Source: Harriotta raleighana (taxonomy: Eukaryota). From it: a stretch of DNA of 64,000 bases. The stretch is taken from positions 3,497,280 through 3,561,279 of the forward strand of contig JBNZDD010013698.1 in NCBI GenBank assembly GCA_050575255.1, in the 5' to 3' direction. Position 1 is the stretch's first letter, and the number at the start of each line of letters is the position of its first letter. The notes below the pieces were generated by a model. The model saw nothing but the letters and a program-made list of their open reading frames with translations, was not told the DNA's origin and made no database searches. Both the position numbers and the translations under genes were made by a program. Shown in pieces: positions 1,442-52,133 of this stretch.

Positions 1442-1570
1442 GATGTCCTGTAGCTCAGTGGTTAGAGCACTCGCCTTGCAAGCGAGAGACCTGGGTTCGA
1501 GTCCAGGCAGGGCAAAACCTTGAGCAAGTTTCCTTACTCCACAAGTCTGATAATAATCCCTAAAAAAAAG
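1442..1570 (+). mobile_element. tRNA(Ala)-like SINE head, 3'-truncated
   Basis: Box A tagctcagtgg, anticodon-like arm ctcgccttgcaagcgag, box B gggttcgagtcc, followed by the family body ttgagcaagtttccttactccac seen in many other copies. Confidence 0.85.
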
Positions 1571-5289: not shown

Positions 5290-5800
5290 CTATGATAGAA
5301 TCATAGAATTATAAGGCATAAAAGGAGGCCATTTGGCCCATCTAGTCTGTGCTACCTCTTTGAACAGAGCAACTCAATCCCACTGTCCAGCTTTCTCCCC
5401 ATAACCTAACAGACCTGCTCTTCCTAAATAAAGATCTAGTTCCCTTTTAAAAGCTGTTATGGAATCTGCCTCCACCACCTTTTCAGGCAATGCATTCCAG
5501 ATTCGAACAACCCACTGAGTGAAAAAATTTCTCCTCAGCTCCCCTCTGCTTCGTTTTGAAAATATTTTAAATATGTGACCACGAATCACTGATTCGCCCA
5601 TCAGTGGAAACAGTCTTTCCCTAGTCACCCTGTCAAAACCTCTCATAATCTTATAAACCTCTATTTGGTCTCCTCTCAATCTTCTTTGTTCTAGAGAGAA
5701 TAAGCCTAGACTATCTAGCCTTTCCTCGTAGCTGAAGTCCCTCATTCCTGGTACCATCCTAGTAAATCTCCTCTGCACCCTTTCCAATGCCTCAATATGT
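5290..5800 (-). mobile_element. CR1 LINE 3' end with intact ORF2 C-terminus
   Basis: ORF 5374-5787 ERVQRRFTRMVPGMRDFSYEERL..LGLFSLEQRRLRGD..EVYKIMRG...FFTQWVVRIWNALP; tail atagaatcatagaa. Confidence 0.95.
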
Positions 5801-7399
5801 TGTTGTAGATTGAAGAAGAAGTGATCATTTAGATTCCAGATTGTAAATAATGGAAAAGATTACCATTTGTACAAATCTGAATTGTAATTCAGAATTCACA
5901 GAAAAGAGACTAACTTAACACTGCGCTTCTTGCTTTAACTTATAAGCTTTACTATGTTTCATTCACATTCGCAATGAGGAACAGAATCTCTGTCAAGTAT
6001 GCACCTTTCAACGTTCTCAGCCCCACACTGGGGCGTTATATCCTGAATCATTATACTGTGGAAAATAATCTTAATGATGTTGTCACACCACTACTTTGGG
6101 AGCTCAATGTGAGAATGTACTGTCTCAAGTCCAGGCCTATTTCCCAGGCAGTCAATATTCCAGTGACAGATGAGTCACATCTGTCATTGCACATCTGTCA
6201 CTGACCCTGACTTCCAGACAAGCCAGAGACTGGGAGAACTGGCTGAACAGAGATTTCACTTCTTTAATTAATTTGAAATTGTTTTAATAAATGGAACATT
6301 TTTAAAAATTACTCTTAGGAAAGAATGAAAAATTATTTCATTCAAAACAATTAAACACCATTCATCGAAGTTTAAAAGAAGGGAAGATAGTCTCCCAAGT
6401 TTGGCAAATTAAAATGGTTGACAGCCCCCTGCATCACGGGGTCTGAGGAGTAATCATCAAAATATTGAGGGGCTTGGAATCAACCAACTCTTCCTCTCTC
6501 TTTCATGCAGATTTTTTTTACATAGAGGAAACTGTTTATTCTTCTACAAGTCTTTTTTTCTGTTGAGTTTTTTTTATCTGTCGTATCTCTTCCCGACTTC
6601 ATTTTGTCTCCGCAGAGCTGTCATTCTCAATACCATTTCCCTCAGATCAAAAATAAAATCATTCCAGCTCTGCTGCCTGAATAGTGCTGTTTCTATCAAA
6701 ATGAAGTCCCTGAATGCAGGCAGGTGCTTCCCTTCCTCCATACATTTTCTCACACTGATTACACCCACAATAAGTGGGGATGGTTAGGAGCCAACATCAT
6801 TCTTGGAGTCAAGGTGTGAGATGTCTTTGATATTAACAATCGTGTAATTAAACATCAATAAAATATTTGAGGTTTAATCATGATGCTGGATGAGTACTTG
6901 ATACTCAGTTCTAGTTTACATCAATACAATTTACATGTACAGTATATTGTGCTGCTCATATCAGGAGGACATCTCAAAAGTGTTTCACACAACAGCATCT
7001 GAGCTGGGTGGAGCTGTGAAAGTTGGGGATGGGAGTAGATGACAATTGAAACGCAATCAAAGAGATGGGTCTTTTGGTCAATTTGTATCCAACGATTCTT
7101 ATCCAAGTTGCCATTCTTAATGTGTGAGCCCACACCATGCGTTTTAGCGTATTGACGGACTGTGAGAAAGATGATAGGGGAGGGAAGGTAATAACCCCTT
7201 AGTTAATTCTCCAAATTTAGCAAAACAATGAAATTATTCTTGTTACTCTTCCCTACCACTCTACAATTTATCGAAGGTCAGATTCCCAAAACCAGATAAT
7301 ATTTGAATTATAAGATTAGAAAATCTATTTTGGATTTTTATTTCAATGCTTTCAGGACACAAATTAGTAGTTAATTATGTTTATCATCTTGTTCTCTCT

Positions 7400-10278: not shown

Positions 10279-10284
10279 TTTATT
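10279..10284 (-). terminator. Possible polyadenylation signal (AATAAA) for MSRA
   Basis: Plus-strand tttatt gives AATAAA on the minus strand about 1.26 kb downstream of the MSRA stop. The hexamer alone is weak evidence. Confidence 0.25.
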
Positions 10285-10601: not shown

Positions 10602-11539
10602 TTGTTAGCACACTCATTTAGACATTAGTTAAGGGTTACAGTGATCTCAGCTTTGATGGACAACTTTAGTTCTTTTTATATATTTGCTGAGTTGAGTTGA
10701 CAGATATTCATACTATAATTTGCTGCAACATCTTTTCCGACCAGATCCTCTTTTAGAGGTAGATCCTTTAAGCTCTGTGTGACATCTGTGTCATACAAGC
10801 TGATTGTATGCACACACATAATCCTAACACCAATATGAAAGAGAGGATCAAACACATATACACACTTAACCATTGTATTAGTTAAACAAGATGACTATGA
10901 ACTACAAATCATCTAGGAAGATGAACTAAATTTCCTTCCCCACCTTTACTGATAGTGAGAAAAATAAACTGTAAAGTACATTACGCAGTGTTTCAGAGTG
11001 GGAATACTTCCATGAGAATTTCTATCGACCATTGGGAATTGTACTCCAAAAGCAGTTTGTACTGGAGCGTTTTGGTGTCTTGCGTTGTCAGTTATCAGAA
11101 GGAATCCCCATTTGTGTGATTCTTATTCCTCTTTGAGAAATCCCATCTAAAATACCAGTTTATATTCTTNCATTTGTGTGATTCTTATTCCTCTTTGAGA
11201 AATCCCATCTAAAATACCAGACATCAAGACCACCCAAAAAAATAGTATATTTTCAGGGGATGAAAATTATTCTATTTTTGAAATCAGCGTGAATGCTGAA
11301 ATCAGGAGATGAACAACCCACTGGTAACTCATTCAAATGTTTTTGCTAGTGCAATTGATTTGCAGTGAAAATTAGATTTACANTTCTTATTCCTCTTTGA
11401 GAAATCCCATCTAAAATACCAGTTTATATTCTTCTAAAATTTCAAAACAAAAAAAATTGATTGCAGATTTGTGTATTTTACCAATTTCATGTGGAACCGA
11501 TTGAAGAATATAAACTCAGGCACTTTAGTCTCTATTATC

Positions 11540-11698
11540 CTAAGGGTCAATAGGGCAAGATATTCCGGTGCCACCGAGCCCACAGTAACCATCTGGGTTC
11601 TTAGCCAAGTACTGCTAGTGGTAATCTTCAGCATAATAAAAGTCACAAGCCTCCAAGATTTCAGTTGTGATTTCCCCATGAAAACACTGATCCAATTC
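11540..11698 (-). CDS. MSRA: Terminal coding exon of peptide methionine sulfoxide reductase A, interrupted by an in-frame TAG at 11617-11615
   Basis: Minus-strand acceptor ttgtgtctttacag| (AG = plus-strand CT at 11699-11700). Phase-0 translation is [51 protein letters not shown] with the final stop at 11542-11540. This matches the vertebrate MSRA C-terminus (human ...[47 protein letters not shown]) at the expected last-exon boundary. Confidence 0.95.
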
Positions 11699-11859
11699 CT
11701 GTAAAGACACAACAGTTGCAAGTCACTGGATTTGTTTGCACCATTTAAGCACATGAGTAATAATACAGTAACACAATTTTACGTGATCACAATGACAAAT
11801 TTCAACAAAAACGGTGGTAGATTGAGTGACAACATTTTTTTTAAGGAATTATTAACCCT

Positions 11860-12087: not shown

Positions 12088-12290
12088 TACAATGTAGCTC
12101 AGTGATTGGAGCACTTGCCTTACAAGCGAGAGACCTAGGTTCGATTCCAGGCAGGTGAAACCTTGGGCAAATTGCCTGATAATAATCCCTCAAAAAAAGT
12201 TTTGTTCACATTCAACTGAAGAAAGGTACCTCTCATCCAGGGCATCCCAACGTGAAAGGCACTATACAAATGTAATTTGGTTGTTGTTGA
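12088..12290 (+). mobile_element. tRNA-derived SINE head plus tail
   Basis: tgtagctcagtgattggagcacttgccttacaagcgagagacctaggttcgattccaggcag. Confidence 0.8.
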
Positions 12291-16779: not shown

Positions 16780-17340
16780 TGTTTCCAAGATGCTATCTTA
16801 CAGACAAAATGTAGTCAATCCACTTCACAGTATATCGTGTGAAGCACTTTGACATACTCGACGATGTGATAAGGTGCTATACCCATCACACCAGTCCTTG
16901 GCAGGCTCCACTGGCTACCAATTACCAAACAGTTCGATTTCCAGATCCTCTCACTCATTTTCAAATCCCTTCATGCCCTCACACCTCCCTACCTCTCCGA
17001 TCTGCTTATCTTACCCCACCACCCAGCCCCTCCATTCGGCCAGCTCCAGGCTCCTGTTTGTCCCTCAGCTTTTCCACCCCAACACCAGTGGCCATGCCTT
17101 CAGCCACTCTCTTCCTCAATCCCTCCCCACCTTCAAATCCCGCCCAAAGACAAATCCTTTTTGATTCACTTTATGGTGAACTACCCCCTCCCCCTCCCTC
17201 TGGCTCGTTATCACTTTCAATGATTCCAGGACGTTACTCCATGTGTAAGGTGCTACATAAATTCAAGTTGTTGTTGTTGTTACACCTAATGCAAATACGA
17301 GGATGATGAAGGGCGCTATATAAATTTTATATTGTTGGTT
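16780..17340 (+). mobile_element. SINE tail followed by an L2 3' end
   Basis: ccagtccttggcaggctccactggctacc (PVLAGLHWL), accagtggccatgccttcagcc, gttgttgttg tail. Confidence 0.75.
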
Positions 17341-22050: not shown

Positions 22051-23300
22051 GTTTCACTCCCCAAAATACTGAAAGTACATTCGTAACTTATAAAGTTCCA
22101 AAAGCAATGTTGTACAACTGGCAATGACCATAACATCAATGGAATGATAACCCTGCTCCTAATCCATACTTAATTTCATCTCAAACATAACTCACTTGAA
22201 GGCCGAAATTCAAGGAGTCAAACATTGAATTGGCTGATGTGAGTTTATGATAGAGAGAATGAAAATAATGGAAACCTTACAATGACAGGCACCAGAGGCA
22301 GCTGCAAATAATGTACATATTAAAAGACTGTGAATCTGCTGGAGATCCGCAAAGGTGTTTTATTATTTTCATTTGGAACAATTTTAAGCACTGATCCTTT
22401 CCAACATAATCACACATTTATGTCCAGGTGTTTCTGAAGTCTAAAATCCCTGAACTGTGAAGGAGCTTGTAACTCAAGTTTAAGAGATGTGAAGGGTGGT
22501 CAGTTTAAGTAGTTTAGCCTCTTCGTCAGCTTCAATTTGTTGTTTACATATAAAAAGGTGAAGAAAGGTTGTTTGTGCCAAGCTCTGCCATAGCAATGTA
22601 TGTTGTCTTCTCCTCAATCCTGGCTAGAGCTCTTCCTCTAATGTAGCCTGTTCATCCACTATATCTATGACAGAAAGCCACCCATTTAGAATACTGTAGT
22701 TGAAAGGGAACACCAGCTTCTGGTTGTTGGGGAAGCGCTTTTGTTTGGAGTACTGTACTAAGCGATGCCACAGAGTAATTGAAGGGATTTAGGAAAATGA
22801 TTCTGCTCTGAAGCCCACTCGTTGAGAATGTTACTCCAATAAAGTGCCATATCAAATAACTTATGGAATTTGGTTGTGTTGTGTCAAAAAATTCTTACTG
22901 CAAATTCCAGTAAGAATTCTTGNGTGCCATATCAAATAACTTATGGAATTTGGTTGTGTTGTGTCAAAAAATTCTTACTGCAAATTCCCACTTCAAACAA
23001 ATGTTTCAAAGCCAGAGCAAATGTCTGTTGATAATTGAATTGTATGTACCAACTCATAATTAGGAATCATTGTTTTACAAATGAAAAGAAAGGTCGATGA
23101 CTTCATTTGATAGATAAATCACATTAGTAATACTGTAATTCCTGCAACCTCCAAAGGTACAAAAGCTAGCAAACTGACAAAGCAATTAGTTTGGAGATTT
23201 GGTCAGGTTTTATGTCGAGTATTACAGAACAGACTTATAAAAGATGCCGCCACTTTGATAACAGATGAATAAATGTTTCTTAAATTCAATATTAACAATA

Positions 23301-24189
23301 CAGTAAAACCTTGTTTATCCGTGACTCGAATAATCGGAAAACCCGTTCAACCGCCATCTCAAAAAAAAGTCACGATCCAACTAACCGGAAGTTATCCGGC
23401 GACGTGTTGATTGTCGGGTCTAAACTCATTCCGGGTCCTTTTAAAAGTCGCGTTTTTTATTTTACCTCGTTCGGATGGATGAGTGCCTGTTGTTGGGAAG
23501 TTAAGTACTGTATACATAATAAATACTGCTGCAGATAGTGGCCAGAGAGGGGGGGGGGTGTAGGAGGAGGGAATGAAGGGGAGGAAACGGGGAGAGATAG
23601 GGAGGGTGAGAATGGAGAGAAAGAGAGAGGGTGGGAATAAGATATGGAGAAAGGGAAAGAGAGAGATAGGGGAAAGCGTAAGCGAGTGAGAGAGAGAGAT
23701 AGGGGAAAGCATAATGGAGTGAGAGAGAGAGAGAAATGGCAGCAGGTTGTTGCAGAGAGAGAGAAAGAGAGAGAGGGAGGGAGAAAGAGGAAAGTTGGGG
23801 GTGCGGGGTGAAATTTGTGGACAGAATTTATATGCTTTTTAAAGTCGCGTTTTTTACCTTCCGTCGAATCCAGTGCTGCAACTGCGAAGTTAAGTATAAA
23901 TAATAATATATTAATAGATTATTCTGTTATTATTTAGTCCATTATTAATAGGCTACGTGTTCAAATAATTTTTTTAAAAATTGAAAAAATTATATTTAAT
24001 AATTTTTTTTAAAANTATTCTGTTATTATTTAGTCCATTATTAATAGGCTACGTGTTCAAATAATGTTTAATTTTTTTGGAAAAAATTATATTTAATTTT
24101 TATTATTTTTTTAAATCAGTTCAACCGGAAAAACTGTTTAACTACCACTGGCCAGGTCCCTTGGGTGCTGGATAAACGAGGTTTTACTG
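23301..24189 (+). mobile_element. Tc1/mariner (Tigger/pogo-like) MITE, copy 1
   Basis: TA|cagtaaaaccttgtttatccg ... ggataaacgaggttttactg|TA: about 21-bp TIRs, TA target duplication, no ORF, internal GA-rich tract. Confidence 0.9.
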
Positions 24190-24326
24190 TATCACGTTAA
24201 GACCTCAGAAACATTCCAAGCCTTAGCTCGTTATTGTCACTTTTGCAACACATGATAAATGCCAGACTTTCAATTCTAATCCTAACTAACGCTCTTCAAC
24301 AGTCATGGCGTACTCAGTCATTGGAG

Positions 24327-26619: not shown

Positions 26620-27510
26620 GCAGCCTGAAGCAACCTTGATAGCTCACCTTTAATTTCTCAAAGATTTTCAAATTCACCTGATTTATCGTCCCTCCAAACC
26701 CTTCCCCACCTTCATCTCTGACGTCTTTGCTCTCCTAGCTTCCCTCTGCCTCTGTTCTGAACGCCTCCTCATCCTTGGTGAAACTTCCATGTGCACTTCA
26801 CTCTCTTTTGCTTTATCTCCACTGACTTCTCTCTCCTTTCCTCTGACAACTTATCCTCCACATCCAACCTGCCACCCACGATCATGGTGATTACCAAGGG
26901 TCTCAGACCTGTCAATCACCGATATAGCCATCTCAGATCACCATTTATTCTCCCTTAACTCCTCAAGATCTCTCCCTATTGTCACCTCCATAGGCTGCAG
27001 ATAATCCAGAACTCTGCGGCCCACGTCTTCTACCGGTCCAAGCATCGTGACCATATCTCCCTCATCACACCTAACTCCATTGGCTCCCCATCACCCAGAG
27101 GATTCAATTCAAAATCCTGGTCCTCACATTCAAAGTTTTCCATGGCCTCGCCCCACTCTATCTCCGCGACCTCCTAACTCCCTACCAACCTACTCGTAAC
27201 TTCCGCTCAGCAGGCTGTGGCCTGCTCCATGTCCCCCAACCCACCCGCCCCACCATTGGCGGGCGAGTCTTCATCCACTCTGCCCCTAACCTGTGGAATT
27301 CCATCCCGGAGTCCTTCCACCTCACCCCCTCCCTAGCCTCCTTCAAGTCCTGCCTCAAGATCCTCCTCATTGATGGTCCCATTGGTCACCCCAAATCCCT
27401 CCCTTTGCTCTCCACCCTCCCTATCTCCGACCCAGCTCGGGTCCAAAATACTGACTGTCTAGTATCTTTGGATATCGTCCCGACCTCTACAAATGCAATT
27501 TTGTTGGTGT
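26620..27510 (+). mobile_element. Internally deleted L2 element (APE endonuclease segment joined to the 3' end)
   Basis: IYRPSKP...RLLILGE and DIAISDH (APE motifs) at 26670-26945, joined at about 26990 to RLQIIQNSAA...LHWLPITQRIQFKIL and the tail. Confidence 0.8.
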
Positions 27511-29639
27511 GGTTTGTGTTTCTCTCATGGCCTATACTAACATTGACTGCAGTGCTGAAGGTGCAGTTCTATCGAGGAGATGCCGAGGTGAGAGTTCTAC
27601 CTATTGAGCTAGGCTGACACCCATTTTTGCGCTAGATTGTATGTGTACTTTTCTGATAATTCAATCAGCGCAGTGGGGTTCAAAGTGTTCTCTGTCACAT
27701 TGGTTTGATCCTCATCCAGTTTATAAATACTGTATGCACCACTGCAGTTTCAGCACACGCTGTTCTGGTGGGTGATCGGCGAGGAGAAGCAGGATGTGGT
27801 CTGCTGCAATGTACCTCTGAAAGGTTGATATTATCCAGGTGGAAATATCCTCCAAATTAAACAGATTGTACTGCTTATAATAACTTGGCAATGAAATTAA
27901 CCCGATATTGCAGAATCCACAAGAATGTTATTTTCAACATCTAGATTTAACAGAAATTACTAGCGAGTATCAGAAAGCTGCAAATCTAAGCTGTAAATAG
28001 AAATATCCAGAGTACTTAACTGATCCTTTAACTCACTCTCTGTTACAATTCTCTTCCACTAAATGTATAATTTATACTAATTAATTCTCATGTCAGCCAG
28101 GAGGATTGTGCTGCATACAAATTCCTGCCAGCTTATTTATTAAACAAATATGACAGGCAGCGATAAGGCAATTCTGTTTGCCATCCCCATTCTGCCTTGT
28201 CTAAATAATGATGTTTTACATTTAGGCAGCAAGGCCACCGACTGATAAACAGGCTCTCCCATTTAAGAAATGCTTAAACATCAATATTTTGCACCAGCAG
28301 TAGAATTTGACAGTGATTTGATGTGCTCACCCGCTTCCACCATCCTCCACCCTTCCCCCCCTCCAACCCTCAGAACTCTCCCTTGAGGCACTTTCTTTCT
28401 AATCTCTGATCTTCCTTGTTTAGCCCCTTAGAGGATTTGTTCAGTTTCTGTGAAGCGACTGCATTTTCCCATCCTTGCCTTCTTGAAATAATATTTGATA
28501 CCGCTGTAAAGCTGAATAGTACAGAACCTGATTCTCTGACTTCATGTATCACTGAATTCCACTTCAACCTGTCTAAGTTTATTAACATTGGAAAAAGAAC
28601 TGACTGAAGAAATGGAAATTAAGGCAACACACCAACACAGCTGTATAAATTCTGCTATAACAGAGTAAAGAAAATAAATAATAACTCACACTTAGTTTGT
28701 GTTTTTCCACATAATTTGTTTCAAATTGCTAGAATGATGTTGTAGCATTCACCAAAGCAATAAACTAAGAGATATTTAGAGATATTGACCAAAGTCACAG
28801 TGAAAAATATGTGCTTTCGGAGGTTTTTGAAGGCAGGGAAAGAGGGGGAATGGTAACAGGCTTTCTGTTTCTGATCTAACTAAAATAGAATTGGAGTTAA
28901 TCTATTCTCTTGTACTGGGACACAATGAGAATCTGAACTGACAATTAGAAGCCAGTTTGCATTTAAGCTGCAAAGGGACATTAATTAATATAGGTCATCG
29001 CTCCTCTTCATTTACTCAAAACAGTGCCAATGTTTTTCTTCCCAACCGGCATAAGATTCATGTGGAGTATAACTACCAGCATGGACTAGATGGGCTGACC
29101 AGTCTATTTCCCTGCTGCACGATGTATGGAAACCTATATGAATGTGACTGTGTTGCTTACAAAAATGATGAACAGATATTTTAGGACTTCTTATTGCCAC
29201 TTATTTTACGTTAGAAAAGTACATGTTTATGACTTGCTTTACTACATCCTGATATATAAACATTGGAAGCAGTCCTAAAAATGACCACAGTCATGCTTTT
29301 CACCTCTGTTCAGATAAGCTCTGAGGCAAGACATCTTCCCAAAGGAAAATGAGGGGAAATCGAAGAGAGGTCTTTGTGTCTTATTTTGTGGCTTTATTTT
29401 AATGATTGTCTAGATAGGGTCTGTTACAAGTTACATTCTTTCTGCTGAGACGCGTGATTCAAACCAATGTGGCAGTGACCAGTGGTTTTCTCCGACACAA
29501 ATTATTATAAGTAGCTGCACATGCCAGGACAACAGCTGATCCCATTTCAAGTTGGACCCAGCCTGATTCAGAGTCTGGAAATTCCCTGTTGTTGTATCAG
29601 TATTTGACTCTGGAGACACGCTTGAAAAAAATAAAACAA

Positions 29640-30438: not shown

Positions 30439-30663
30439 TATTAAAGTAGCTGATCAAATGTTTCGCCGCAGTCCTCAAACTGAACTCCACCACTACACCA
30501 CAAGCTGTACTTTTAATAATAACAATCCCTATATTTGATATAATTCCTTATCACGTTGTTGAGATGACTTAATAGAATATATTGTCAAATTGAATTGACT
30601 GTATGTTTTGTGGGTGAAATGCAGCAGCCAAACATGTGTCCCTGCAGCAGCCAAACATGTGTC

Positions 30664-31783
30664 ACTGTGAGGAGATGCTGGATTTCCTTGAATCCAAAAT
30701 CAAGGGAATCCGCTCCGCGGTCATGGCGCACACAACTTCCACCCTCCCACCAGCCTTTCCCCCCCACACTCTGACTTCCACTCATCGTCCCCTATGCACC
30801 TTTGAACCCGTTTCCCCTTCCTCTGTCACTAAGCTGGTCCTGACCCTGAAGCCCACCACCTGCTCCCTGGACCCCATCCCCACTCCACTCCTTATCTCTC
30901 AGCTCCATCTCCTTGCCCCACTTCTCACAGATATAATCAACCTGTCCCTCTCTTCTGGTTCAGTACCCATTCCCATCAAGACTGCCACCATCACTCCCAC
31001 CCTCAAGAAACCTTCCCTTGATGCGTCGCAGCTTTCAAGCTACTGGCCCGTCTCCAACCTCCCCTTCCTGTCCAAGGTTCTGGAAAGAGTCGTCGCCTCC
31101 CAGCTGCGCTCTTTCCTCNNNNNNNNNNNNNNNNNNNNNNNNNNNNNNNNNNNNNNNNNNNNNNNNNNNNNNNNNNNNNNNNNNNNNNNNNNNNNNNNNN
31201 NNNNNNNNNNNNNNNNNNNNNNNNNNNNNNNNNNNNNNNNNNNNNNNNNNNNNNNNNNNNNNNNNNNNNNNNNNNNNNACTAGTCCACGCCTTCATCACC
31301 TCAAGGCTGGACTATGGGAACTCTCTCCTTGTAGGCCTTCCCGGCTCCTCCATCCACAAGCTGCAGGTCATCCAGAACTCTGCAGCTCGTGTACTCTCCC
31401 GCACCAGGTTTCGAGACCACATCACTCCCACCCTCGCCCGTCTCCACTGGCTCCCCATCCCCCAGAGGATCGAATTCAAGATCCTCATCCTTACCTACAA
31501 GGCTATTCACGGCCTTGCTCCCTCCTACCTCTCCGACCTACTATCCCCCTATCTACCTACCCGTACTCTCCGTTCCTCTGGCTCTGGTCTGCTCCACATC
31601 CCCTGCCCTAACCATCCTACCATTGGTGGCCGGGCTTTCAGCCGCTCAGCCCCCAGGCTCTGGAACTCCATCCCCCAGTGGCTTTGCCTCGCTTCCTCCC
31701 TTTCCTCTTTCAAGGCCGGTCTCAAGACCTTTCTCTTCAACCGTGCCTTCAGCTCCCCTCTCGACTCTCTAGCCCCTCCTTGC

Positions 31784-31814
<31 letters not shown>

Positions 31815-31927
31815 ACCGCCTTGAACNTTTCCCCCTGCTCGGGTCTTAAACCAACTGTCCAGCGCCTTGGGACGTCCTCCTGACGTGAAACGCACTCTAT
31901 AAATGCAATTTTGTTGTTGTTGTTGTT
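30664..31927 (+). mobile_element. Young 5'-truncated L2 LINE (ORF2 RT-proximal region and C-terminus)
   Basis: LKPTTCSLDPIPT.LL...IINLSLSSGSVP..KTATITPTLKKPSLD....YWPVSNLPFLSKVLERVVASQL; after the gap [17 protein letters not shown]...[15 protein letters not shown]; (ttg)n tail. Confidence 0.95.
31119..31278. other. Assembly gap (160 N)
   Basis: Run of N within the L2. Confidence 0.99.
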
Positions 31928-35693: not shown

Positions 35694-35849
35694 TAGTTGA
35701 CATACTTCAGATATCGAAGTTAATAATAATAATAATCCTTACATTTGATATCATGTCGCCAAGACGACTCAAAGTGCTTCACAGGATACACTGTAAAGTA
35801 TAGTGACTGTAAGTTGCCATAACCATATGAAAACACTGGTATGGTAAAA

Positions 35850-36422
35850 CAACATCAACAAAATTACATTTGGATAGCACCTTTCATATCAGGAGGTTGT
35901 CCCAAGGCGCTGGACAGTCAGTGTTTCACTGTTTGTTGGCGTTCCATCGATAGGCTACAGATAATCCAGAAGCCCATGTCATCTACTGCTCCAAGCTTTG
36001 TGACCATATCTCCCCCATCCTCACCAGACTCCATTGGCTCCCCATCACCCAGAGGATTCAATTCAAAATCCTGGTCCTCACATTCAAAGTCTTCCATGGT
36101 CTCGCCCTACCTCTGTAACCTCTTAACCCTCTACCAACCTGCTATGGCCTGCTCCATGTCCCCCGACCCACCCATCCCAGCATTGGCGGGCGAGCCTTCA
36201 GCCACTGTGCCCCTAACCTGTTCCATCCCGCAGTCCCTCCAACTTGTCCCCTCCCTAGCCGCCTTCAAACCACACCTCAAGAAGCTCCTCTTTGATAGTC
36301 CCATTGGTCCCCCCAAATCCCCGCCTTTTCCCTCCACCCTCCCTATCCCTGACCCCAGTTCGGGTCTGACAGCACCTGTCCAGCCTTTCGCCTTTCTGCA
36401 CAAGTGTAATTTTGTTGTTGTT
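35850..36422 (+). mobile_element. L2 3' end preceded by an inverted L2 tail
   Basis: RLQIIQ...LHWLPITQRIQFKILVLTFK; attggcgggcgagccttcagcc; aattttgttgttg tail. Confidence 0.85.
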
Positions 36423-36444
36423 ATTAACAAATTGTAGCCGCTTA

Positions 36445-37975: not shown

Positions 37976-40079
37976 TCCTAACTGTACAAAACTTTTTAAT
38001 CTGACTGCAACTATTTGATGGCATCTTCGCAAAGTAAAGACGTGCTCAAATATATTGGATTGGGGAGTGAAACAATGTGACATATCACAGCAGTTTTAAT
38101 GCTGCAATTATCAACTTGAATTCACTGTGAAGCACGGCAATGTTTCCTCTATTATTGCCCTTGATAGAAATGTGAGAAGATTCGTGAAGTTTACTGTATC
38201 TTTTGAAACTCTAGTCATGAAATTCGTAACCTTGGAAATATGTTGTACATGGACACGAGAAAACTGTGGGAATTGTACATGTTAGTAGTAGAAAGCTCTT
38301 TGGGATGGATTGGAAGTCTGCTCTTCCATCATTACAAGATCTGTTAGACTATTTAGTTCCCATCTTAGCCTGTTAAGAAATAAGAGAAACAATTTAACTA
38401 ACGGCAGGAGCAATATAAAAACCTCAGTGATCAAATTTATTGAGATAACAATCAAAAAGCAGGGAGTGTTAACACTGTGTGTTATCACTGGAAATATAGA
38501 TTTCCAGAATCCCTTTATGGGAGTCTGTTAGAATCTCAACTGTGATTAATCGTTTTTTTCTTATCTTACTAATTTATCTTAGTAATATACTGAACTGCGC
38601 ACCTCAGTAATTACCTGGGTAAAAATCTCATTGGTGTGCTCTCAATTCTGTTTCCTTATTAGAGCAATTTGTCATTGTTTCTAATGTGATTTGTAGAGAA
38701 AACGTGAATCCAACTCAAAATGTGCTTTTTTTTTAATGCAGGTTTACCTGTAGTTGATGAGTGAAAATATTCTTGGGGGTAATCCCAAAACATTGATTAG
38801 GGCCCCTCTAGCCTAGTCACTGTTAGTGTTTAACCCTGAGGCAGTTTGGTCATGTAAATCTTGTGAAATTACGTTCAGCTACAAAATACACAGTCTGTGT
38901 ACTTCACAATAAATCCTCTGATGTCCTTCCAACATGGACAATGCTGTTTGAAATGTAAGGATTATTAGTATTATTATAAGAGAGAAAGGCTGACACTCAT
39001 ACATTGAGTCAAATAACCTCTCACTGTTATGTAGGTGCAGTTTCTTTTTTTTTAAATGTAGGTTGAATTGCTTTTAATTATCTCGCCACTTGTGCATGCC
39101 TCGCCACTCCTGGCCTGGCCTCTTCTTGGCAGTTCTGTGGGCATTGGTTGCTCTCCCTTATCCTGCCAAAGGGAAATTGTAGCCACCTTGGCAGCAATTG
39201 TTGGCAGACCCTGTACACACTGCTATCATGAAGCCTGACCTCCTCACCCAACAGCCACACATGCACACAACCAGTAGAGGATTCCGAACAGGCACAGGGA
39301 GCAGGAAACCTGTCAGGTTCAACCCTGGCTTAATGCAACAACTCTGTGACGCCCTGAATAACAATGTCGCTGGCTCTGTGGCATATTTTTATCTCTCTTC
39401 AACAACAAAAAACGGCCTAATGGAAGATAAGATCGTAAGAACATAGGAATGAATGTTCGGCCATAACAACAAAATTACACTTATAAAGCGCCTTTCACAT
39501 CGAGGACGTCCTAATTAGATTGCTATATATCTGGGCTCAATTTATTTGAAACATTTTAAACTGTATCAAACAGTTCTCCATAACCTTTGAGTGAAGTGCA
39601 TTGAGATAAACAGTGTCATCCAAGCAGATCTGTTTTGTTCCATTCCATAGATGCAGTGAATTGCATCGTTGAGGGAAATGCATTTGGTGGAGTACTGTAC
39701 ATGCTGTAACTACTGACCATGACTGCAGTAGTGCCCCTATACAATCTTTTATAGCTTTCCAGCCCAGAGGAGGCTAGCATAAGGTACTTGTGGAGACCAC
39801 ATATGGTGGTATAAAATACAGCATTCAATGTGATATTCTGTATATTCTGGGAATGTGAGACATCTCGAAGACTTGATAAGGCGCTATATCAACTACTAAG
39901 ATTATTATTATTATTACTGGTAATAATGTCACATTTTTCATCCCTTGGCTTCCACTATACCCTCCAGTGCTTTTTGTTTGGTTAAAAACTAGAAATAAAA
40001 ACTCACAATTTGGATCCCTTTAACAATGACAAATATAAATGATATAAATTGCACTGAAGGAGAAAAATCTAAACACTTA

Positions 40080-45813: not shown

Positions 45814-48800
45814 ATAGAGATGAATAGAGGTTATTTATTATGGAAAATTAGTCAAGACTGTTCCACAGCGGTGGGTGACATCTGATTTATGAATCTAGGT
45901 GTAATCTGTATTAATAATAATTCTTGTATTTGTTGCAGCACCTTTCAAGTCAGGAGAAGATCTCAAAGAGCTTCATGGGAATTAATGTAAAGTGGAGTGA
46001 CTGTATTTTGTAGTGTCTTTTAAACCCTTGCCCTCCACTAGCATTTTTACCCATAGTTGAGAGGTCGAAGTAGTGAAACCATGTAGAACTTTGTAAATCT
46101 TGTCAACTCTGGTCTCTGTCAAGCTGGCGGGAAGCAATTATTTCACTCTACTTAGGGAATTAATGGCACTTGACTCTATTAGGTGACATTTGAGTATTTA
46201 ACAAGTACATAATGTATAATAGGGTCAATTTAATGCTACATTCAATATTTATCTTGTGGAATATACCCTAGTTGTGCCAGAGGCAGGTTCCCCACCAACA
46301 TCACTCTCAATGGCCCCATGCCTTTGAAACACATTGTTGACTGTTTGACTTGAAATCTTTAATGTACAACACTTACTTTGAAAAAAGCTGGAATCGGAAG
46401 GCATTTGTAAGAAGCAGAATAAATAAATGTTCTTGCATTGTACCCACATGTTTTAAATTTGCTCAAGGACCCTGCTGATAACAGATCAGATCAGCCAGTT
46501 TGACTGATTAACAGGATCTTAGATGGGCAGACCTGGGAGCAAGGATTCTTCCCACTGTTAATCCTGCAAGCCAAAACCCCAATCGTAGTGTTGTCCGGAT
46601 AAGCAGCAGAAAGCTCACCAAACAGTGCTCTAAATGGCAAGCTATATGGCTTTAATGGTTAAACTCTATCAGTACACAAACATATACTCTGGGGTCCCAT
46701 GCAGATATAGAAACCACTGCAAACTCACAAACAGTGTAACTGAACCATTGTGACCCACCATCTGCTGAGATATGGAAAACATTTCCAGCACCACTACACA
46801 AGCATCAGCAGGCATCCTCCCTCAAAACACACAGTCACTCCACTTTACACTGCGTCCTGTGAAGTGCTTTGAGATATCCTCCCAACATGAAAGGTGTTAC
46901 AGCAATTGCTAAGATTATTATTATATTTAATAATTGCTTGTGTTTTGTGAAAAGCACAAAGTTATTTAATTTATGTTCTGTGCTGTGAATATGGCAACCA
47001 TTGCAGCTGCAACATGAAAATATTTGTCTAAACACTGTTTTCCTGTAGATGAGAAGTGCACAGTATGACTTTAGATGGCAGGATTTATTTTCAACAAGTC
47101 AGGCCTGTGAATTATTTTAGGAGAATGCAGCAGTAGAGGGAAAAGGAGGAAGAATGGGGGGAATGAATCAGAAGTGGTTGCCATCAGAAATTGACTCACT
47201 AAGTTTGCATATTAAAATTCAAGCCAACGCCATCATAGAAACAAAGAGATTAAACACATTTAAATGATGCAGAGGTTAATAGCGATGACTGCCTTGAGAT
47301 ATAACATTTTGGTTAACATTTTCAAGCCAAATTAATGCAAAAATATTGAGACATCTACAAAGAAGCCTGCCAAATCCGCTGGGCTTTGACTAAAGAGGAA
47401 ATGTCAGGTGGAAATATTTTTAAATTGAAATGACAACACCTTTGGCAGACGTCTCTCTGAAACAAACATGATTTTCTTTTTTTTTTGTACGCTGTATTCA
47501 ATGCATTTTCATCACAAACCCCTTCACAGAATAATTTTTTTTTTGTTTGCTGGGGGAGGGGTGCGAGGAGGAGGAAGGCAGGCGGGCAAGGCATTAACAA
47601 CAATGAATGCGAATACTGATTCTGCATAAATCAAAATGTGCAGCAGCTGATAAACTGGTCCTTTTAATTAGCTGTGACCCAGCAGAACCTGCAGCCACAA
47701 CATCATGCCAGACGCCTCAATTCTTCCACTTGCTTTACATGAACACTTCACAGATTATGTGCACGATGGACTGCTGGAATCTCGCACACCAAAAGTGCTC
47801 GACTGTCAACCAAATATAATTCAGTGCAAATAGCCTTCGGAAGAGAGGCAGTAGGTTTGATACTAAGCAGATGAAAACACTCTTCTCTGCCACAAGACAC
47901 ATTTGGCTCTTTATCAGAGCCATTTCAGATCCTTTGTTGAGTGCATATATTTTACACAGTTTGAATCAAAAATGTACTTAAAAAAGGATTTTATTTGCTC
48001 ACCAGAGTTCTGTAGCTGTGTCTGTATGTGTGAGTATAATTTTTTTCAAATCACACAATATGTGCATATGAGAATCATTAAAGCTTCTCACAATTTCCTA
48101 ACCCGGCCTTTCAAGAAGACTATATATGTATTTTACTATACATGTATTTTATGTGTGCGTTCTTAAAAAACTTTCCATCTGTCAAATCTCCAAAAACATT
48201 TGAAGAAGAAAATACAAGTCAGCAGTTCTTATCCCAGCAAATCATCAGCAATTCTTCATCCGTCAGCAATTACATCCATTTTAGAATTAACAAGAATTTC
48301 AATAAGACACATTTGGTGTGTTCATTTGAAGGTCAGCATGCTGGGGGTGGGAGGAAGAGTCACTTAAATTAGCTTTAATGTTGACACATCTCCATGTCAA
48401 AAGCTGCTTTTTTTATTAATAGAAATCTCATACTTTGTTGGATGGTAAAAGCAAACAGATTGAGTGTGTAACTCCGCGTTGAAACCTCTGGGTGCTCTCT
48501 GTGGCTACCACCCCCTCTCCTGTTATATGGATGAGTACTTGCTGCTGTACATTATTCCCTTTTTTAATTGTTAACAAAATGATTCTAATTTAGAGCAGTA
48601 TATACACTCTTCCTTCCAGCACTCTCTCAGCTCAGTGTAAAGTTCCATCCTTTTTTCTTTAAAATATACTCTTTGTGATTCAAAAATAAGCTGGAGTGAA
48701 TAGTTTTGATAGCCCGGACTCCCACTGGCTCTGTAAAGTATTTTGAGATATTTTTCTCAACATGAAAGGCAAGTGTAAGTTAGCGCTGTTATAGTTTTGG

Positions 48801-50631
48801 TAACTTTTATGTATTCTACAAATACAAGTCAACTACAGTTTAGGTATTTTCTGCCCACAGTCTTGAATGAAATCCTGTTTCTTAAAAAGTAAGATTGACT
48901 TCTGTACACTTGACTCCACATGACAGTAATCCTTGTGAAAGTTTTTATTTCCTAATCTCCTTTTTGGTCCTCCCAGTTATGATTTTAAAACTAATACAGT
49001 ATTAATCATCCTCGCACTTGATATGGTGCTTTTCACATGAGGAGAAGTCTCAAAGAGCTTCACAGGATGGACTGTAGCTGTAGGGAATGTGTATTTTGCA
49101 AGTACTGTATATAGAGCAACTAATTGGTACATAGCAATGTCTCACAAATAGCCATGAAGCTATTCTGAAGCAAGAGTTCCCTTTGGTCAACAGAAATTGT
49201 GTTACGAAAGACGGCAAGCTAAACTCAAATCATAGAATCATAGAAATCTACAGCATACAAGGAGGGCATTCAGCCCATCAAGTCTGCACTGGCTCCAGAG
49301 CAAGATATGAATTCAAACGAACAAAGGCTGAATTTAAGAATTTTCCGCATTTCTTCCTGAATTTAAAATTTCAAAATGGTGTTAATACCTCAGAATAGAT
49401 GTTTTTTCAGATCTCTTCTTTCTAAAAAGGCTCTTTTTGGGCCATTTAAGCAAAGAAACTTTTAATAAATTTGAACAAATCATTTACCTGCGATAAACTC
49501 CTGTTTACTGAAACATAGTTCAAGGGAGTTCACACAACATGTTTCTTCAGTTACTTTCAGTGGAAATTATGTCTCGGGCCCCCAAAATACGCAGTTAACA
49601 GTTATAAACTTGCTTAATTTGAATGATGCTAGCTAATGTTTTGCCAGCAGTAATTTAACAGGTGAAAATCTGCTAAATCATGGATTATTGCACAGACAGT
49701 AAAAATGTAAGGGCGATAAAACCAGGTAGTTAACCTGCATTTAATGCTCAAACTGCTTTCAGAGTCTGTGGACACACTCTTAGTATGGATTTAATTCTGA
49801 CTCATTTACATATTTCTAGGACTGAAATTAGGAATCTCAAAACAAGTGATCTTTGTGGAAGGGTTTCACAGTATGCCCGGTTTAATGTTAAGCTTTAAAT
49901 GTTTATCCTTCAATGCTCAGAAAACATATTCAGATGAGATACGTGTCACTCTGGCTTAGTTGGTAACATTCTCGCTTCTGAATCAGAAGAAATAAATATT
50001 TTTTAAATCCTTCTATTTCGAATAGTGCCCCTATGTTGGGAGGACGTCTCAAAGTGCTTCACTGGACACACTATAAAGTGAAGTGTCTTGTGGGCAAATC
50101 CGGCAGCCAATTTGTGCACAAACACCAGGAGAAATTCATTTATCTTTTCAACCAGTGCTATGTGATTCCTGACATGAACATGCAGTCAAATGGCCATCAT
50201 TATATTCAAGATTTGAAAGTGCTTAGTTTTAAACAATTAACTAGTAATTATTTGTAAAGCTAAATTTTTCCTTTGTTGGAAAATCTTCTACTCGAATGTT
50301 TCAGTCTTTAAACTCTACTGCTACTAAATGCATTTATGTACATTAATGTAACAATCCTCCCATTTGATACAGGATCTTATCATCCTGAAGCCACTCCAAA
50401 TGGTTTTTTGTAAAGTGCAGTGACTGTGTCTTTGTAGGCAATTTGTGCATTGCATTATCCCACAAACAGTCAAGAAATGAATTACCACTTCTTAAAAAAA
50501 TCTGGTGATTATTGGTTGGAATACTGGGGGAATCTTCTCATTCGAATATTGCCATGTGATCTTTAACATCCACCAGAACAGACAAACAGGACTTTTGTCC
50601 AATGACTCATGTCTGCCAATACAGTGTTGGC

Positions 50632-51012
50632 ACATTCAAAGCTCTCCATGGCCTTGCCCCACCATACATTTACAATCTCCTAACCCCTTACCAACCTGCC
50701 CGACCCCTGCGCTCAGCCTGTTCCACGTCCCCCAACCCACCCGTCCCGCCATTGGCGGGCGAGCCTTCAGCCACTCTGCCCCCAACCTCTGGAACTCCAT
50801 CCCGCAGTCACTCCGCCTTGCACCCTTCCTGGCCTGCTTCCATTCCCGCTTCAAGACCCTCCTCTTCGATGGTCCCATCGGTAACCCCAAATCACCCCCT
50901 TTCCCTCCCCATATCTGACCCCAGCTCGGGTCTGAAACAATTTTTATCCAGTGCCTTGGGACATCCTCTTGCCGTGAAAGGCGCTATACAAGTGTAATTT
51001 TATTGTTGTTGT
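50632..51012 (+). mobile_element. L2 3' end (same subfamily as 27000-27500 and 35950-36420)
   Basis: TFKALHGLAPPYI.NLLTPYQPARPLRS; attggcgggcgagccttcagccac; tail. Confidence 0.9.
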
Positions 51013-51213: not shown

Positions 51214-52133
51214 TAGTAAAAGCCCCTTTATCCGGCACCCACAGGACCTGGCCAATGTCAGTTAAACGGTTTTCCGGTTGAACTTCTTTTTTTTTAAATT
51301 AAAAATTACTTGAACACATACCATATTAATAATAGACTAAATAATAACAGGTAATAATAATATTGTATGGGTATTTTATTATAGATGTTGTATACTGTAC
51401 CATATAAATAATAGAGTAAATACAGATACTGCAGATACTGTAATAATAGTTATAACAGTAATAACTGTAATAACAGAATATTGTATGGCTACTTTATTGT
51501 AAATCTTGTACACTACTATATAAATAATAGACTAATAACAGATACTATAATAATAGAATATTATATTGGTACTTTGCAATGGCAGCACCCACGGGGGAAA
51601 ACAAAACAAAGTCAAAAANTGGCTACTTTATTGTAAATCTTGTACACTACTACATAAATAATAGACTAATAACAGATACTATAATAATAGAATATTAGAT
51701 TGGTACTTTGCAATGGCAGCACCCACGGGGGAAAACAAAACGGTAGNAACAGTAATAACTGTAATAACAGAATATTGTATGGCTACTTTATTGTAAATCT
51801 TGTACACTACTATATAAATAATAGACTAATAACAGATACTATAATAATAGAATATTATATTGGTACTTTGCAATGGCAGCACCCACGGGGGAAAACAAAA
51901 CAAAGTCAAAAACACGACTTTTAAAAAAAAACGGCAGTAGCATGACTTTAGGCTCGACTACTGGCCAGCCAATATATCTGCACAGTACTCGCGTATGACA
52001 ATCGATTCATTAACTGCGTCATCGCTATTCTGCCAGATAACTTCTAGTTTATCGAATAAGGACTTTTATTTTTGAGGTGCCGGTTCAACGGGTTTTCTGG
52101 TTCATTGAGTCACGGATAAACGGGCTTTTACTG
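51214..52133 (-). mobile_element. Tigger-like MITE, copy 4 (interior inflated by assembly duplications)
   Basis: agtaaaagcccctttatccgg ... cggataaacgggcttttactg|TA; internal AT-rich block matches copy 3 in reverse. Confidence 0.85.

Follow-up and report, generated by a model that had tools for sequence, protein, structure and literature searches.

What does an in-frame amber stop in the last coding exon of a conserved repair gene signify: loss of the gene, a null allele, a dying copy, readthrough or an error in the assembly? The question is raised by an exon of MSRA, which encodes the main enzyme reducing the S form of methionine sulfoxide, in the window (the whole stretch of 64,000 nucleotides analyzed here). 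The exon occupies positions 11698 to 11540 of the minus strand, is in phase 0, and comprises 52 codons and a natural stop; in alignment it corresponds to mouse MsrA from residue 180 onward, exon codon n pairing with mouse residue n + 179. We read the frame codon by codon and confirmed the TAG described in an earlier note, in a minus-strand exon behind a splice acceptor; no frameshift was found anywhere across the exon. The features discussed below are collected in Table 1.

Table 1. Features in and around the last MSRA exon and tRNA-like matches in the window
Feature	Position	Strand	Remark
Pyrimidine-rich tract and AG splice acceptor	11699..11720	-	Sequence ends ttacag at 11699
New Cys codon, exon codon 5 (Gly in C. 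milii)	11684..11686	-	Cys in 0/107 rows listed
New Cys codon, exon codon 18 (Arg in C. milii)	11645..11647	-	Cys in 0/107 rows listed
Premature TAG, exon codon 28, first Gln of HQQY (mouse Gln207)	11615..11617	-	Between CAC and CAG TAC
Tyr codon of HQQY (mouse Tyr209), 3' of stop	11609..11611	-	Tyr in 107/107 rows listed
Resolving Cys218-equivalent codon, 3' of stop	11582..11584	-	Cys in 107/107 rows listed
Resolving Cys227-equivalent codon, 3' of stop	11555..11557	-	Cys in 106/107 rows listed
Natural stop TAG, codon 53	11540..11542	-	Same place as C. milii MSRA end
Assembly graph fork, 3' flank	11109..11433		Two single-N joins, exact 50-nt overlaps; ~115 nt past natural stop
tRNA-Ala(TGC)	1444-1515	+	63.6 bits
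Weaker tRNA-like match	12093-12153	+	37.3 bits

The assignment to MSRA is borne out by several comparisons. With X at the stop, the exon peptide matches the Pfam PMSR family (PF01625; E = 3.5e-9, 37.5 bits against a cut-off of 23.7) over profile positions 118 through 152 of 153, aligns to mouse MsrA with E ~1e-19, and also matches bovine and bacterial MsrA structures. The top protein matches among those listed are three MSRA records from Callorhinchus milii, with 87% identity over the whole exon (45 of 52 residues; the next row has 38 and the median is 35, among the matches listed). Similarity to C. milii MSRA starts at the acceptor, and the sequence upstream of it has no match to the previous exon; the natural stop falls earlier than in most shark and bony-vertebrate rows, and the first AATAAA lies at 10284, 1.26 kb downstream. 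In a tree of the last exon (54 columns, bootstrap not fully settled) the window exon is sister to C. milii MSRA (100/99), and in a whole-protein tree C. milii MSRA groups with shark MSRA (100/99); both trees comprise 24 chosen rows and are rooted at the midpoint. This closeness to C. milii in identity, end point, and tree position points to a holocephalan source, and the exon is, on sequence grounds, a holocephalan MSRA orthologue distinct from the C. milii records. Should the source come from a family other than that of C. milii, the split between Chimaera phantasma and C. milii, dated to ~187 Myr ago in PMC12952989, gives the scale.

Conservation was assessed in 107 named vertebrate rows, drawn from the best 120 of 8000 matches after 11 unnamed and two further C. 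milii rows were dropped; the whole-protein set has 106 rows, P0205 also being left out. The stop does strike the HQQY motif, as had been claimed, its column aligning to mouse Gln207 and being Gln in 107 of the 107 rows among the matches listed. The variant base, 11617, is A on the plus strand and does not lie in a CpG site. Alignment to mouse MsrA likewise upholds the identification of the two downstream cysteines as the resolving Cys218 and Cys227; their codons are present, but, being 3' of the TAG, they are absent from the predicted translated product. The sole row of the 107 listed without the Cys227 equivalent is a Pristiophorus MSRA record (P0156), which has Tyr in its place and Arg at the adjoining conserved Gly; it may represent a second chondrichthyan erosion or a database error.

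Translation ending at codon 28 leaves 169 of 194 residues (87% of the frame), a product 25 residues short. In a predicted model of the C. milii protein (35 rows; mean pLDDT 71) the stop position lies midway along the helix formed by residues 165 through 175, with a pLDDT of ~70 before it and 54 after it; the truncated protein would thus end inside the last helix, without Tyr209, Tyr217, Cys218, and Cys227 (mouse numbers). Exon-junction NMD normally spares transcripts whose stop lies in the last exon, so the mRNA would be kept and would be expected to yield the shortened protein. The His and Tyr of the motif (His186 and Tyr189, Escherichia coli numbers) position the pocket Trp, a role on which our literature search found nothing, and loss of half the helix would probably also harm the pocket. 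The earlier note had the truncation removing the motif Tyr and both resolving cysteines, which stands, and the mouse enzyme indicates the cost: PMC13678007 reports that C218S leaves 8% of thioredoxin-dependent activity and that none is detectable in C227S or C218S/C227S, with DTT-dependent activity at 75 to 115% in these resolving-Cys mutants. Since thioredoxin recycling needs the resolving cysteines, the catalytic sulfenic acid could not be recycled by thioredoxin, and the enzyme would be dead or nearly so in the cell.

How old might such a lesion be? The stop apart, six residues differ from C. milii, and they fall in 6 of the 20 variable columns and in 0 of the 31 conserved ones (Fisher p = 0.002), a distribution suggesting that purifying selection acted on the exon through most of the split from C. 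milii. The absence of change at ~65 non-synonymous sites in conserved columns limits neutral divergence since loss to at most 0.046 per site, which translates into 23 to 92 Myr for assumed substitution rates between 2 and 0.5 x 10^-9 per site per year; for the 24 codons after the stop alone, the bound is 0.091 per site, or 45 to 182 Myr at the same assumed rates. The earlier note had taken conservation without a frameshift beyond the stop as a sign that the lesion is recent or not real. The conservation holds, with none of the conserved columns changed, but "recent" is loose under a bound of this width.

Two of the six differences are new cysteines, at exon codons 5 and 18, the second of which could have arisen by CpG decay. 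In the rows listed, the same 20 variable columns contain one Cys in 2139 cells; none of the 107 rows has two extra cysteines, and one has a single extra Cys. The pair is a hint of relaxed constraint, drawn from related rows by a test chosen after the data had been seen. A stronger sign is that C. milii MSRA itself departs from columns that are near-invariant in the 105 other rows listed (P0002 residues 50, 66, 70, 109, and 148). It carries Ser for Tyr87 (aromatic in 105/105 other rows listed), Thr for Tyr103 (Tyr in 104/105), Ala for Cys107 (Cys in 105/105), Cys for Arg146 (Arg in 99/105), and Phe for Gly185 (Gly in 101/105), the last of these being common to the window exon. Tyr103 is the MsrA pocket residue that binds the sulfoxide oxygen, and its replacement and that of Cys107 agree in all three C. 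milii records. Over 115 conserved columns C. milii ranks first of 106 rows for BLOSUM-weighted loss (58, against a median of 6) but comes only third when departures are simply counted (8, the two rows ahead having 10 and 9), and its end branch in the 24-row tree is 0.38, compared with 0.009 to 0.22 in five elasmobranchs. GCFWG, Glu115, Tyr155, and both resolving cysteines are retained. The Tyr103 and Cys107 changes may be mild in effect, since mouse C107S keeps 83% of thioredoxin-dependent activity (as given in PMC13678007) and rat Y103A keeps 74% in a radical-scavenging assay (as given in PMC5334523). The window exon was scored at last-exon sites only, and the erosion at Tyr103, Cys107, Tyr87, and Arg146 is that of C. 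milii.

We tentatively favor, at a little under an even chance, the reading that a C>T nonsense mutation truly arose in a single MSRA orthologue, that it is fixed or common in the species, and that holocephalan constraint on the gene had weakened beforehand. The stop and its place, the exon's orthologous relation to the C. milii gene, and the erosion at the amino-acid level are observed; beyond these, the base would have to be real, to stand on both chromosomes, and to have no intact second copy behind it. The invariance of the Gln, the position of the stop in mid-helix, the behavior of the mouse double mutant, the new cysteines, the erosion in C. milii, and the lack of a second Callorhinchus MSRA among the rows listed all argue for this reading, as do the exact 50-nt overlaps at joins, which suggest a k-mer assembler that would usually filter single-read errors. 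Against it stand the limits of one lesion in one exon of one assembly, with the acceptor and the frame intact and the conserved columns untouched, and allelic forks in the scaffold that make heterozygosity likely in this region; at the protein level the evidence for relaxed selection is mixed, the two new cysteines and the C. milii erosion being set against 0 changes in 31 conserved columns. Among the four options that the earlier note had offered, recent loss or a null allele is the best supported. Sharma et al. (PMC5865188) call gene loss on lesions in several exons and less than 60% of the frame intact. The in-frame TAG at an invariant Gln is an inactivating coding mutation, and the stop alone leaves 87% of the 194-residue frame, of which one exon is visible. 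One stop in one exon of one assembly falls short of gene-loss standards.

The structure of the assembly bears on whether the base is real and whether it stands on both chromosomes. The window is made up of 9 contigs in 64 kb, with seven single-N joins and one 160-N gap, and several joins carry exact 50-nt overlaps. Such overlaps suggest a de Bruijn assembler run at k near 51, and a k-mer assembler would usually filter isolated read errors and collapse simple allelic bubbles to one arm. At the fork in the 3' flank, a 212-nt contig (11171-11382) provides an alternative upstream path into the same downstream sequence, and its 162 unique bases have no match elsewhere in the window. A 127-nt contig (51620-51746) is flanked by two identical copies, from which it departs by 2 substitutions and at its end, and two versions of one stretch are found at 23920-24125. 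Exact duplications of 50 to 165 nt or allele-like alternatives occur at single-N joins at 51454-51912, 23920-24125, 22844-22988, and 11109-11433; tandem repeats were considered at these four sites and rejected in favor of assembly artefacts. The earlier note mentions neither the forks nor the erosion in C. milii. Because the scaffold carries allelic forks, the animal looks heterozygous in this region, or else the region looks like a collapsed near-copy.

An animal carrying both C and T at 11617 would give exactly the observed assembly. The stop could then be a segregating null, with CAG on one chromosome and TAG on the other, the one-base bubble having collapsed to T, in a species that keeps a working MSRA. 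We regard this as rather unlikely, although the allelic alternatives in the scaffold (at 51620-51746, at 23920-24125, and at the fork ~115 nt past the exon) and the lack of any other lesion at the 31 conserved columns speak for it, and in otherwise conserved genes a mutation confined to one exon is often mistaken for gene loss (PMC5865188). On its own, a heterozygous null leaves the two new cysteines and the C. milii erosion unexplained; relaxed constraint could let such an allele rise. A consensus or assembly error at 11617 is improbable. A single base separates the exon from an intact version, and the region is fragmented, but the stop belongs to an 11.5-kb contig and lies 182 nt in, clear of the 50-nt overlap zone; TAG arises here by substitution and not by a homopolymer indel, and the inferred k-mer-type assembly makes a random base error less likely.

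A nonsense mutation in a single orthologue also supposes that the exon is not a decaying duplicate (a segmental copy or an orphan exon) coexisting with an intact MSRA at another genomic site. Searching the window by tblastn with the three C. milii proteins revealed no other MSRA exon (best E 0.07 outside the exon), and neither did a profile of the 106 named proteins (best iE 4.8) nor tblastn with the same 106 (0 matches outside the exon). A Pfam scan for neighboring genes placed 0 of 131 reading frames above the cut-off; these came from 146 frames, of which ~18 overlapping or low-complexity ones were left out and three were replaced by N-free pieces. Weak Pfam matches at 38285-38527 and 47867-48163 fell below the cut-offs and were taken as chance. 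No coding exon, of MSRA or of any other gene, was detected in the 52 kb from 11699 to 64000. Vertebrate MSRA normally has a very long last intron, and this stretch is probably one such intron, with the linkage to the previous exon inferred. Among the best 120 of 7877 and the best 120 of 8000 rows there was no second Callorhinchus MSRA, and among the best 120 of 7877, 8000, and 145 rows there was no same-lineage (chimaerid) MSRA with either the Gln or the truncation, a count that applies outside the members of the C. milii 90% clusters. We consider a duplicate quite unlikely. The lack of further MSRA exons in the 52 kb upstream and of a neighboring gene to show synteny would fit one, as would the two odd cysteines, and the 3' fork could mark a copy boundary; yet an old dead copy is contradicted by the differences from C. 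milii, which avoid conserved columns, no C. milii paralogue appears in the rows named above, and a long last intron could account for the empty 52 kb. A processed pseudogene was rejected, since the exon still has its intron acceptor and is not joined to sequence of the previous exon.

Repeat-like features occur elsewhere in the window. At 23298-24192 there is an element of ~900 nt with 23-nt terminal inverted repeats that are 96% complementary, which is probably a non-autonomous transposon of the Tc1/mariner-pogo type. The longest open frames (16815-17303, 27075-27614, 30618-31846, 35823-36434, 50496-50915, and 5377-5859) resemble the terminal parts of LINE reverse-transcriptase proteins (L2/CR1 type); Pfam gave no match for them at E <= 0.01. 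Both tRNA-like matches may be heads of tRNA-derived SINEs, since the segment 1479-1537 shows 75% similarity to a repeat lying immediately upstream of the exon.

Functional UAG readthrough with Gln inserted, restoring enough full-length enzyme, is very improbable. A C at +4 raises basal readthrough in mammalian cells, as described in PMC3315467, and tRNA-Gln can decode UAG in yeast, as described in PMC13192750. The earlier note had given weight to this +4 C; it carries none, because the next codon, 29, is Gln (CAR) in 107 of 107 rows listed, and every C>T change at codon 28 would yield UAG-C without any selection for it. The context CAC UAG CAG UAC is off the tobacco mosaic virus (TMV) motif UAG CAR YYA at 2 of its last 3 bases (motif as given in PMC13517186). 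The 5' codon is His, so the context is not QXQ, and a one-sided Gln context brought modest, non-significant gains in the yeast data of PMC13192750. The 118 nt downstream fold like shuffled sequence (z = 0.47; 124 of 200 shuffles at least as good, for this one stretch), and basal readthrough over 66 stop contexts in mammalian cells has a median of 0.04% in PMC3315467. No stop occurs in this column in any of the 107 rows listed, C. milii included, in annotated protein sets that would under-report stops. A little full-length protein may be made; the evidence lends no support to programmed rescue.

Less probable still, and to our minds highly so, is that the truncated protein works as a 1-Cys-type MsrA recycled by small thiols, or that the new cysteines substitute as resolving residues. 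Mouse C218S/C227S keeps 94% of DTT-dependent activity (as given in PMC13678007), 1-Cys MsrAs exist (as given in PMC4333827), and both new Cys codons lie 5' of the stop and hence inside the truncated product. The truncation, however, also takes the invariant Gln, Tyr, Leu, Lys, Pro, Gly, and Tyr columns together with half of the last helix, and the new Cys at codon 5 corresponds to mouse residue 184, in a peripheral flexible loop. Other routes around the stop were discarded. The codon is UAG and not UGA and aligns to Gln and not Cys, unlike a selenocysteine recoding signature; splicing at the TAG-CAG NAGNAG would cost the exon its first 28 codons, in which 15 of the 31 conserved columns lie; and A-to-I editing of UAG gives Trp, not Gln, at a codon where Gln is invariant.

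If the nonsense mutation is genuine, a chimaera lineage may be losing a repair gene kept by other vertebrates, with the stop perhaps on one chromosome only. The loss could have been stepwise, Tyr103 and Cys107 going first, as in C. milii, and a fixed stop then removing the recycling cysteines; we hold this sequence of events to be possible but doubtful. Our literature search, which covered sources other than subscription journals and supplementary gene-loss tables, found no report of vertebrate MSRA loss among the matches listed. MsrA is tied to oxidative-stress resistance and ageing. Were the loss true, chimaeras would be a natural vertebrate knockout for methionine-S-sulfoxide repair, and a slow-living wild lineage without MsrA would test the necessity of this repair route and point to a replacement; a link to cold, deep, low-metabolism life is speculation. 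Nonsense alleles and lineage-specific gene losses are familiar kinds of event, and if the stop proves heterozygous or an error, the finding is an ordinary one in which only the altered active site of C. milii still merits attention. Those changes are of enzymatic interest whatever the fate of the stop.

Comparison with known systems sets these readings in context. The type I signal of TMV, given in PMC13517186 as UAG CAR YYA, shares with the window a UAG followed by CAG, but the next codon here is UAC and not YYA, as dictated by the Q-Y residues. Holocephalan TLR15, as described in PMC9808068, is degraded across holocephalans, with stops or frameshifts in some species only; this immune gene has already disappeared from many lineages, and one lesion in it was PCR-checked from cDNA (PMC9808068), whereas MSRA is a housekeeping repair enzyme whose stop is known from the assembly alone. 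A shortened form of mouse MsrA, as described in PMC3143090, likewise keeps the GCFWG site, but it is there a minor transcript beside the full-length form and not the product of a genomic stop. Mammalian MsrA (mouse 6AGV and 2L90, bovine 1FVA) agrees with the window exon in its C-terminal motif and in where the two resolving Cys stand, and is full length and recycled by thioredoxin, whereas the window allele would end at Gln207; even the bovine construct 1FVG is longer, matching up to query residue 40, beyond the first resolving Cys. The nearest comparison is C. milii MSRA (P0002-P0004; P0004 = XP_007902660.1), which has Gln at codon 28 and an open frame where the window has the stop, the two new cysteines, and four other changes, and which shares with the window exon unusual residues at exon codons 3, 6, 32, and 52.
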